A DNA stretch of 63,931 nt, the filler included, from Bonamia ostreae (Eukaryota): the NCBI GenBank assembly GCA_040357525.1. It is 40 parts of 40 records of this genome, joined end to end, with 100 filler letters (N's around TTAATTAATTAA, not from the genome) between each part and the next. Parts side by side here need not be neighbours in the genome. Positions count along the whole stretch, not along the records: positions 46,549 to 48,040 come from JBDODL010001715.1; positions 48,141 to 49,632 come from JBDODL010001716.1; positions 49,733 to 51,224 come from JBDODL010001717.1; 37 more parts are not named here. One strand, given 5' to 3'. Shown one piece after another: positions 48,001 to 51,000 of this stretch. Made by a program: the position numbers. Within the stretch, counting starts at the first letter, position 1, and every line of letters starts with the position of its first letter.

Positions 48001-51000
48001 AATATCTGCTACTCACATTTCCTCTCTTTGTTCTTGTTGTNNNNNNNNNNNNNNNNNNNNNNNNNNNNNNNNNNNNNNNNNNNNTTAATTAATTAANNNN
48101 NNNNNNNNNNNNNNNNNNNNNNNNNNNNNNNNNNNNNNNNATTGTTGATATCTTTTTCATTGTTTTCAATATTGATATCATCGATGCTTTCTTTGCCATT
48201 GTTGACATTTTTATTAATTTCGTTATTTAAAATGCGATTATGATTCTTATCGGTTTTTTTATTGTTATTAACTTTTGTGTCCATTGTAAAAAATTGTGTT
48301 GGGAATTGTAAAATTTTGTGGCCTAAATTTAATAATTATTTTTGTTACAGACTTTTATGTAAGTTAAAAATTAAAATCACTTACACAATTGTGAAGCAAT
48401 AACAACGCTTTTGTTATTCAAAAAATTATTTGCCAAAATTATTTTCATCATTTAGATTTATAATAAGAAGAATAGACGCAAAGAAAGCAGAATTATAAAG
48501 GATGCCAAAGAAGATTATTCAAATTATTTTTGTACAAAACTTACTTCAAAAAATAAAAATACAGCACATTCTTTATGATTTTGATCCCACCAAAATATCA
48601 TCACTGAGATTTCCGATTATCTCTAATTTTTCTTCATTCCCAACAAACTCAAATTTTTCTGAACCGAGTTTGACTACAGCCAATTCAACGTTTTCGGGAT
48701 TAATTTTTTCTTCCATCGTGTTTTTGAGAATTTGAAGTGCTAATTTCTTAGCTGATTCCAGGCTCATTGTTACTGCGTAGTGCTCCTCTAAAACATTTTG
48801 GACGTTTTCACAACCAGATCCGATGGCTTTCGCAGAGCAACGCGTAAAAGTGCCCGCTGGATCGGTGTGATAAAGACACGGCCCTTCTTTATCGTCTATT
48901 CCAGCTATTAAAAGGGCCACTCCAAATGGGCGCGACTGTTTTTATATTTTGTTTATTTTAAAGACATTAAAAACGCCACTGATAATTTACAACGACTATA
49001 AGCCCAAAAATTATTGTAAATATTAAAATTACGCAACTGAAGCCATTAATAAAGTTTAGATTAACTCAATATAATTTTTTTATAAAGCTCCAATTGATAA
49101 ATCCGAAATGGTATTAAAACCATTTCTCTTCCTTTTTCACCAAAACCAAGAGCCAGATCACTGACGGATTGGGCACATGCTTCGACGCCCATTCTTTCGT
49201 TGTAATGGAAAAAGTGGTTTTGACAAGCAGTTCTCGCTTCATCGATCAAAAGTTGAGAATCTGCTGTTATTCCACTGAAAGCAGTGCACATGTCTTATAA
49301 TTGGGAATGTTTGGAAATTTAATATTCAAACGATGGTCGATTTCGAAAATCTTTCGAATGCTTTCCGGAACTACGAGAGGGGACATTAGACGCTTTTCGG
49401 CTGCTAAAACAACGCCTTCATTTGTTTGAAGACCGATCGCAGTCGTTCCGAGCTTTAGATTTAAATTTCAAACTTTGATGGATTCCGAGGCATATTCGAC
49501 TTGGAAAAGACGGCCTTCGGGGCTAAATGTGTTTACGCCTCTGTCGTAATCGCTTCTTGTCAGAAACATTTTTAAAATTTAGTGTTAGAAAAATTTTAGC
49601 AACTTCAATAAATCTTAACTAGAAATAGTTAANNNNNNNNNNNNNNNNNNNNNNNNNNNNNNNNNNNNNNNNNNNNTTAATTAATTAANNNNNNNNNNNN
49701 NNNNNNNNNNNNNNNNNNNNNNNNNNNNNNNNTTTGTTATAAAATTTTGTTTTTTAATTATTTTTTGTTTTGAAAATTTTTAATTTTTTCGTTTTTAATT
49801 ATTATTTTTTGTTATAAAAATTTGTTTTTAATTTTTTTGTTGTTTTTTATTTATTTTTTGTTTTGAAAATTTTTAATTTTTTCGTTTTAAATTATTTTTT
49901 CTGTTTTAAATTATTTTTTTCTGTTTTAAAATTTTGTTTTTTAATTATTTCGTTTTTAATTATTTTTCCGTTAACCACTAAATAAGAATATTTTAATTCT
50001 CCCATTTCCGCCGATTCTTCTAACAAATCGACGCTCTTTTCGTACATCTTCTTTTTGTCCGTTTTGTCTTTCGAAGAATTTATTACATCTTCTGCCACAG
50101 CTTTTGGCAAACTCGCCCTTATAATCATTACTTAAAACACTTGGCTCTTCGCAACAACCGACAAAATCCCCAAAACACAGAAAGTGGCTACAGAAAAGCC
50201 CATTGTTATCAAAGCCAAATTAGAAATTTTATATTTGTCAGCAAAACGCGGTCTAAATTTATCAAAACATGAGCTTTTCAGATTTATCGGATTTTTAAGA
50301 GCTTTAAATCTTTTGGTTATATGGAAAAGCTGTTTGTTCGACATTAAAATTCGTTTGGAAATCATTTTGAATATCGCTAAATTTTAGTTATTTACAGCGA
50401 AACGTTAAAATAAAATCATTTAATGTCGGACAAATATAAGCTCCGTTCATACAAATCGAACACGTTATTTCTTTCTTCAACTTTCGACTTTCAAGATTGG
50501 TTAAAAAACTTTAAAATCGTCATTTCGATGAACGTAATCGGAAACTTCTTTGACGTCCAATAAATTTGTCGTCTAAAATTGGTCAAAATAGTAAAAACGT
50601 CATATTTTCGCAAAAGTTCTCCGATTTTAATGGCTTCGAAAACAAAAAGCGGATTCAGTCTTTCTGTTCTTCTTTTCATTTTTTCAGCCATTTTTTCGGA
50701 CTTTTTGATTTTTTTAAGCTGTTTACAAATGTCTTTTAAAATGTTTAGTTGGCGGTTGGTTTCTTCATCTAAAGTTTTTATTGTGCGAGGAGAGCCGTTA
50801 TTTAAATTCGGGCGCCCAAAATTTGGATTTCGGTTTAACAATGGCGGCGCAGGCGGAATTTTAAAGTTTCGATCGCCCGATTTCAATCGCAAAATTTTTT
50901 TGCTCAAAGTCGAATTTCTTTTCGATTTTGGCGATGAAAAGGCTAATTTCCATTTCGGTGGTTTTTTGGGGCTTTTTTGATTGATTGATCGAATGTTAGA

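Follow-up and report, generated by a model that had tools for sequence, protein, structure and literature searches.

GTTT splice donors head introns of 19 to 185 nucleotides in the oyster parasite Bonamia ostreae

Which bases mark the start of an intron in Bonamia ostreae, a haplosporidian (Haplosporida, Ascetosporea, Rhizaria) that parasitizes the flat oyster? The question arose at a proteasome subunit alpha type-5 gene in its draft genome (GCA_040357525.1), where an initial annotation made from the DNA had proposed a non-standard splice code of GTTT donors and AAG acceptors in very short introns. We followed that proposal through a window of 63,931 nucleotides (nt), which is not a single locus: it consists of 40 contigs of 1,486-1,513 nt, each spaced from the next by N44, TTAATTAATTAA and N44. 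The donor part of the proposal stands, U at +3 being near-invariant and the conserved G at +5 absent; the special AAG acceptor does not. A published draft assembly of the species, probably the source of the window, comprises 9,705 scaffolds with an N50 of 1,417 nt and 33.3% G+C, and its paper reports funannotate gene models, trained on published transcriptome reads, with a mean of two introns per mRNA (PMC11069148).

The proteasome gene lies on the minus strand of contig 31 (48141-49632), with the following parts:

48576..49569, minus strand: proteasome subunit alpha type-5 gene of Bonamia ostreae, four exons, 250 amino acids; the model protein P0001 threads exactly
49453..49473, minus strand: intron 1, 21 nt, GTTTGA...AAAG, phase 0, from threading and homology
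49294..49331, minus strand: intron 2, 38 nt, GTTTGA...TAAG, from threading and from its omission in a contig of run X7
48936..49120, minus strand: intron 3, 185 nt, GTTTTA...ACAG, from threading and from its omission in the same contig

Its last exon is 98% identical to the best database match, a 250-residue protein named 'Proteasome subunit alpha type-5 [Bonamia ostreae]', and positions 2-46, 46-94 and 99-189 of the Pfam Proteasome profile fall on successive exons; the spliced protein is 59-61% identical to four of four homologues from distant eukaryotes and colinear with them over all three junctions. Intron 1 would, if retained, bring in an in-frame stop (V*NLNLK), and the junction left by its removal, between IK and LG, is ungapped in all four homologue alignments. 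The interval first marked as unusual, 48936 to 49473, proved exact: on the minus strand the 185-nt intron ends at 48936 and the 21-nt intron starts at 49473, so that the interval runs between the outer edges of three introns, one of which belongs to the 19-23 nt class. Both introns quoted as examples were also recovered, GTTTGAAATTTAAATCTAAAG at 49453-49473 and GTTTATATATTTATTCAAAG at 16639-16658, each on the minus strand.

We compared four public runs (including X1, X2, X5 and X7) with this contig only, and hence with one gene. One 296-nt contig of run X7 (depth 7,590), a run whose kind is guessed to be RNA, follows the minus strand and omits exactly 48936-49120 and 49294-49331; the skipped segments have CT..AC ends on the plus strand, which are GT..AG on the minus strand. 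Runs X1, possibly the source of this DNA, and X2, which come from different studies and are labelled 'DNA?', have contigs that continue through introns 2 and 3 with at most three base differences. The 21-nt intron 1 lies outside the coverage of the X7 contig; one 151-nt contig of X5, a run whose kind is not given, spans it unspliced, and we draw no inference from it.

Our intron set has 22 members. Fifteen (tier 1) come from exact threading of four public gene-model proteins onto the DNA, and in all 15 threaded gaps a GT..AG solution reproduces the model protein exactly; their lengths are 20, 21, 21, 23, 38, 43, 78, 85, 86, 90, 105, 106, 125, 127 and 185 nt. Seven further introns (tier 2) have weaker support and were partly read by eye; four of them are single-solution loci from a scan that was blind to positions +3, +4 and -3 and looked between long coding-like frames. 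The whole set spans 19 to 185 nt, and 10 of its 22 introns fall within 19-23 nt. Outside the proteasome gene the members are:

53851..53935, minus strand: intron of a WD40 gene, contig 34, 85 nt, GTTTTT...AAAG, exact threading of P0061 [Bonamia ostreae]
53598..53702, minus strand: intron of the WD40 gene, 105 nt, GTTTTC...AAAG, threading of P0061
53255..53344, minus strand: intron of the WD40 gene, 90 nt, GTTTTT...AAAG, threading of P0061
53145..53163, minus strand: candidate intron, contig 34, tier 2, 19 nt, GTTTTC...TTAG, inferred; missing from the public model
52956..52989, minus strand: candidate intron, contig 34, tier 2, 34 nt, GTTTTA...AAAG; missing from the public model
27094..27114, minus strand: intron, contig 17, 21 nt, GTTTAA...AAAG, threading of P0080 (MHBO_003270, Bonamia ostreae)
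26906..26983, minus strand: intron, contig 17, 78 nt, GTTTCA...TCAG, threading of P0080
26719..26738, minus strand: intron, contig 17, 20 nt, GTTAAA...TTAG, threading of P0080; sole GT-AG solution in the motif-blind scan
26542..26666, minus strand: intron, contig 17, 125 nt, GTTTTA...AAAG, threading of P0080
26132..26174, minus strand: intron, contig 17, 43 nt, GTTTTT...TAAG, threading of P0080
51534..51619, plus strand: intron of an NF-X1-type zinc-finger gene, contig 33, 86 nt, GTTAAA...AAAG, exact threading of P0081
51673..51695, plus strand: intron of the NF-X1-type gene, 23 nt, GTTGCT...ATAG, threading of P0081; junction between NCGR and HFC ungapped and conserved
51965..52091, plus strand: intron of the NF-X1-type gene, 127 nt, GTAAAA...ACAG, threading of P0081
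52390..52495, plus strand: intron of the NF-X1-type gene, 106 nt, GTTTTC...TTAG, threading of P0081
16639..16658, minus strand: intron of a mitochondrial-carrier gene, contig 11 (outside the composition groups described below), tier 2, 20 nt, GTTTAT...AAAG
21405..21425, minus strand: intron, contig 14, tier 2, 21 nt, GTTGAT...TTAG; sole GT-AG solution between frames of 130 and 41 codons
23062..23082, minus strand: intron, contig 15, tier 2, 21 nt, GTTTAA...TAAG; sole GT-AG solution between frames of 230 and 147 codons
36069..36090, minus strand: intron, contig 23, tier 2, 22 nt, GTTTCT...AAAG; sole GT-AG solution between frames of 255 and 210 codons
57330..57349, plus strand: intron, contig 36, in a gene with a weak FYVE-domain match, tier 2, 20 nt, GTTTTT...TTAG; sole GT-AG solution between frames of 162 and 76 codons

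Homologue alignments of the NF-X1 gene product place three of its four junctions in ungapped conserved blocks. In the WD40 gene, the public model P0061 runs through 53145-53163 to a stop, and removal of these 19 nt extends the WD40-like frame; removal of 52956-52989, which a motif-blind chain finder also chose, links ...DFVVSK to DEKLILSCGEDNN, a WD40-like repeat, in frames that were read by eye. The intron at 16639-16658 is flanked by two Mito_carr open reading frames (ORFs) in different frames, and its removal links ...SSFISG to FVASLFSCPFDVIKT; both frames around 21405-21425 have positive coding scores. Taken as a whole, the set shows that the introns exist and have the boundaries given.

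The donors depart strongly from what intron composition predicts. Eleven of the 15 tier-1 introns start with GTTT, for which the base frequencies of intron interiors (A 0.417, T 0.403, C 0.091, G 0.090) give an expectation of 0.162 (binomial p=1.5e-6), and 14 of the 15 start with GTT; position by position, T stands at +3 in 14/15 (p=2.8e-5) and at +4 in 11/15 (p=0.01). Within the same four transcripts 11 GTTT sites are used and 38 unused, against 4 used and 166 unused among other GT sites (Fisher p=1.8e-5, odds ratio 12), GTTT thus making up 38 of the 204 unused GT sites (19%). Across all 22 introns there are 17 GTTT and 21 GTT donors, with T at +3 in 21 and A in one, the sole donor without T at this position being GTAAAA at 51965. 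U at +3 and +4 therefore exceeds background, and the proposal of GTTT donors is confirmed well beyond chance.

Downstream of +4 we found no comparable preference: +5 has T in 10 introns, A in 7, C in 3 and G in 2, +6 has A in 11, T in 8 and C in 3, and T occupies +7 in 9 of 22. The donor signal is thus G-U-U-(U) followed by background bases, which differs from the GTRAGT consensus, with its R at +3 and G at +5, and from the U12-type donor (A/G)TATCCTT, since A at +3 occurs only once and then in GTAAAA. The supposed tie between GTTT and introns of 19-23 nt was not borne out, because introns of 78-185 nt start with GTTT too; the rule extends beyond tiny introns to every length seen, from 19 to 185 nt. 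Where 16 hand-picked introns of 19-23 nt had earlier given 13 GTTT donors and 11 AAG acceptors, our own ten of that size gave 7 GTTT donors, five AAG and five TAG acceptors. We found no published splice-site consensus for Bonamia or any haplosporidian in the open-access literature; subscription journals and supplementary files, which could hold logos, lay outside that search.

The window mixes two classes of contig. A single tetranucleotide axis with 60% of the variance divides the 40 contigs, and CpG content gives the same division: the observed/expected ratio is 1.25-2.02 in 17 contigs, including all four with Bonamia gene models, and 0.18-0.92 in 20 host-like contigs, while contigs 11, 23 and 36 fall outside both composition groups. 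Among motif-blind single-solution short-intron loci, GTTT heads six of nine on Bonamia-like or unassigned contigs and none of five on host-like ones. The host-like contigs had been said to use GTAAGT and GTATGT; the group is real by composition and these words are commoner in it (49 in 30.0 kb, against 6 in 25.5 kb of Bonamia-like sequence), but the counts are of raw words and not of defined introns. The class is made up as follows:

Contigs 1, 5-9, 12, 13, 18, 22, 24, 25, 28-30, 35 and 37-40: host-like, on the basis of composition

One candidate intron, 39881-39903, was dropped because the composition of its contig is host-like. The host-like contigs bear animal-like features, namely fibronectin type III matches (11288-12029) and a retroelement integrase (63613-63873), each on the minus strand; this class may be residual host DNA inside the parasite assembly. 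The CpG excess of the Bonamia-like contigs is itself unusual at about 30% G+C. ARAGORN found no tRNA in the window.

At the 3' end, AAG acceptors are indeed seen, in 13 of 22 introns, where -3 has A in 13, T in 6, C in 3 and G in none, but the frequency of A does not stand above background (p=0.076); in tier 1 alone, A at -3 occurs in 9/15 (p=0.12 against 0.417), and AAG accounts for 9 of 15 used and 88 of 201 unused AG sites (44%; Fisher p=0.28). A fair statement is that -3 tracks base composition save for G: the usual preference for C or T is lost, and no new AAG code replaces it. The sites do not follow the pattern of a pyrimidine tract with a YAG acceptor, Y standing at -3 in 9/22. In the 11 introns of at least 30 nt, the last 15 nt before AG have A 0.52, T 0.37, C 0.085 and G 0.024, which at 52% A and 45% pyrimidine upholds the reported absence of a pyrimidine tract. 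The 3' end thus carries little information: an AG, no G at -3, no YAG preference and an A-rich last 15 nt.

As to the reported absence of a fixed branch motif, the canonical YTRAY turns up in 7 of 21 introns, where shuffling predicts 6.4 (this test and that of covariation below included the candidate at 39881-39903 that was later dropped). A different word, picked post hoc, may mark the branch region: on the sense strand TAAAT is present in 11/22 introns and TAAATT in 9/22, where AT-rich background windows have them at 16% and 9%, whereas the reverse complement AATTTA is found in 3/22 introns against 9% of background windows. Within the last 25 nt, most occurrences of TAAAT(T) begin 8-28 nt from the 3' end. 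We regard it as a possible branch-region motif and as a lead only. The words AAAT, AAATT and AAATTT also beat mononucleotide shuffles, but natural AT-rich stretches from these contigs often contain them too.

It had further been speculated that the GUUU...AAAG ends of tiny introns pair with each other. When nine introns of 19-23 nt were folded, six came out at 0 kcal/mol, and in no case did the proposed U-A pairs close the intron as its sole structure; T at +4 and A at -4 show no covariation (9/6 versus 4/2, p=1.0). The same donor also heads introns of 78-185 nt, to which three end pairs are irrelevant, and we therefore reject this idea.

How, then, might such a donor be read? The canonical U1 arm, quoted as ACUUAC in the Entamoeba preprint discussed below, could pair only with G1 and U2 within introns of this kind, so donor recognition would rest on something else. 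The best explanation, and one that we consider probable, is that these are genuine GT-AG spliceosomal introns of B. ostreae with a lineage-specific donor consensus, G1 U2 U3 (21/22) U4 (17/22), read most likely by a changed U1 arm. Our best guess at the change would be an alteration of the arm opposite +3 and +4, as in Entamoeba (ACAAAC), to which pairing of U3 and U4 with the ACAGA box of U6 small nuclear RNA (snRNA) may contribute; with no pyrimidine tract to guide it, 3' site choice would presumably fall on the first suitable AG downstream of the branch site. We recognised one spliceosome part in the window:

29427..29732, minus strand: LSm7 homologue (U6 snRNA-associated Sm-like), contig 19, expectation value (E) of 7.4e-23 to human LSm7

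The main rival, which we consider unlikely though deserving of weight, keeps all snRNAs canonical, has U1 weak or dispensable and leaves donor choice mostly to U6 (and U5/Prp8), with which GUUU would pair better than GUAA. It draws on statements in the Entamoeba preprint (Roy and Bowser, bioRxiv 10.1101/2022.06.08.495308) that the U6 ACAGA box pairs better with U at +3 and +4 and that the GUAUGU lineages (yeasts, Giardia and Trichomonas) retain a canonical U1, and on the report that U1 and U5 snRNA were not identified in mikrocytids (PMC10245619); the lack of any base preference at +5 and +6 would also fit a very short pairing register. In Entamoeba, however, the one lineage with U at both positions, the U1 candidate did change according to the same preprint, which counts against this rival.

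Two further alternatives deny the signal or the introns altogether. It is very improbable that GTTT and AAG are merely the look of random GT...AG segments in 30% G+C DNA, brought out by hand-picking. This reading does hold for the acceptor, where A at -3 (13/22 against 0.417) and the AAG share of unused AG sites are as described above, and the ready occurrence of AAAT, AAATT and AAATTT in natural windows agrees with it, but for the donor it is refuted both by composition (GTTT in 11/15 against 16%) and by the unused GT sites (19%). AT-richness cannot explain the donor because the A usual at +3 and +4 is itself an A/T base; nor can AT pressure explain a change from A to U, because T and A are about equally frequent in intron interiors, and yet +3 is T in 21 introns and A in one. 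Scarcely credible, in our view, is that the short interruptions are assembly indels, pseudogene lesions or segments eliminated at the DNA level. Since run X7 is RNA by guess only, its joined form is not established as RNA, and ORF-based criteria alone failed to separate real from spurious junctions: ORF-joining GT...AG scans gave GT-AG counts no higher than those of decoy dinucleotide pairs, a control that says little because decoys can cluster at real junctions, while two motif-blind chain finders were too inaccurate: one, using codon scores only, misplaced the known introns of contig 31, and the other, using codon scores and intron composition, found only 6, 4 and 3 of the threaded 15 at its three penalty settings. 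Against a lesion or elimination, however, stand the unspliced and nearly identical X1 and X2 contigs from two further runs, the GT..AG ends of all 15 threaded gaps, the colinearity of the spliced products with homologues and the presence of an LSm7 homologue in the window.

Several observations weigh against our preferred reading of a lineage-specific donor served by a changed U1 arm. Rfam searches of the window, at the gathering score and at E up to 1, returned no snRNA gene, leaving the mechanism as inference; the sole item at E up to 1 was a sub-threshold microRNA match (E=0.67). An Entamoeba-like ACAAAC arm would favour G at +5, which only 2/22 introns have, and the Entamoeba solution is therefore not transferable unchanged. 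The text of the genome paper calls B. ostreae introns canonical (PMC11069148). The sample is limited, at 22 introns from 10 contigs, and threading required GT..AG ends, so that other termini would go unseen; the tier-1 models come from predictors trained on transcript data (PMC11069148) and may echo a learned donor model. Removal at the transcript level is supported for two of the 22 introns, by the X7 contig with its guessed kind, and the other 20 are known from gene models, homology or reading frames. The intron at 27094-27114, whose 21 nt are divisible by three, has no in-frame stop, so its retention would add seven residues, and the gene model is its sole support; the other six introns of such length all contain an in-frame stop. 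Five of the 22 donors are exceptions to GTTT, namely GTAA at 51965, GTTA twice and GTTG twice, and a further candidate, a 20-nt intron at 17004-17023 on the minus strand of contig 11 in the mitochondrial-carrier gene (GTAAAT...CAAG), was read by eye, left uncounted and would be an exception even to GTT.

The consequences reach into annotation and evolution. Tiny introns may be under-annotated in B. ostreae and some of its proteins truncated: at least one public model, P0061, appears to miss a 19-nt intron and stop early, and if such read-through is common it would affect protein sets, completeness scores and inferences of gene loss in a species that parasitizes farmed oysters. With U at +3 and +4 but no G at +5 in a second lineage, unrelated to Entamoeba, the co-evolution of snRNAs and splice sites becomes testable again; and the occurrence of tiny introns alongside ordinary ones, in the same class as the mikrocytids with their 16-17 nt introns, is relevant to intron shrinkage. 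The Bonamia-like contig 4 also carries on its minus strand (5662-6320) a gene resembling a sterol methyltransferase (Sterol_MT_C, E=4.4e-22, with methyltransferase domains); it is split by an intron for which there are six GT-AG options, the shortest-frame ones starting GTTTTT. On reading, T-rich imperfect repeats of about 20-50 nt (TTTTGTT..., TTAATTATTTTT...) were seen at 49733-49990, at the start of contig 32.

Among known systems the closest in donor sequence is Entamoeba, where 88-90% of introns have GUUUGU donors, the U1 candidate carries ACAAAC and the two-site departure from GUAAGU was called unprecedented in the preprint text (10.1101/2022.06.08.495308). The likeness consists of U at +3 and +4 (here 21/22 and 17/22), an AT-rich parasite genome and short introns. 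The two differ further along the donor, Entamoeba having GUUUGN in 96.9-98.5% and U at +7 in 78-83% of introns as given in the same source, against G at +5 in 2/22, T at +6 in 8/22 and T at +7 in 9/22 in Bonamia. Any resemblance must have arisen independently, since Entamoeba belongs to the amoebozoans and Bonamia to the rhizarians. The GUAUGU donors of Saccharomycotina, Giardia and Trichomonas, described in that preprint, share with Bonamia a pyrimidine at +4 and a mismatch to the canonical U1 arm, but those lineages retain A at +3 and G at +5, where Bonamia has U at +3 and an unconstrained +5.

A second comparison is with the mikrocytids Mikrocytos and Paramikrocytos, which like Bonamia are marine invertebrate parasites of the class Ascetosporea with very short GT-AG-type introns of conserved sequence. 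Their introns are reported to be 16 or 17 nt long (217 and 7 of 224), with U2, U4 and U6 as the snRNAs found and 17-19 spliceosomal proteins; the intron consensus is given in a figure, and the text of the paper has no GTTT, GUUU or the word 'consensus' (PMC10245619). That uniform length sets them apart from Bonamia, whose introns span 19-185 nt with a cluster at 19-23 nt. Other tiny introns, cited in the same paper, are those of chlorarachniophyte nucleomorphs (18-21 nt) and heterotrich ciliates (15-16 nt); compared by length only, these ranges are narrow, whereas the tiny introns of Bonamia share genes with introns of 78-185 nt. A broader proposal, which we put forward tentatively and without favouring it, is that Bonamia, and perhaps Haplosporida or all Ascetosporea, would represent a second independent rewriting of the +3/+4 code together with its machinery, through a re-coded U1 arm or U1-independent choice, in which the GUUU introns of 19-23 nt would be intermediates toward the 16-17 nt introns of mikrocytids.

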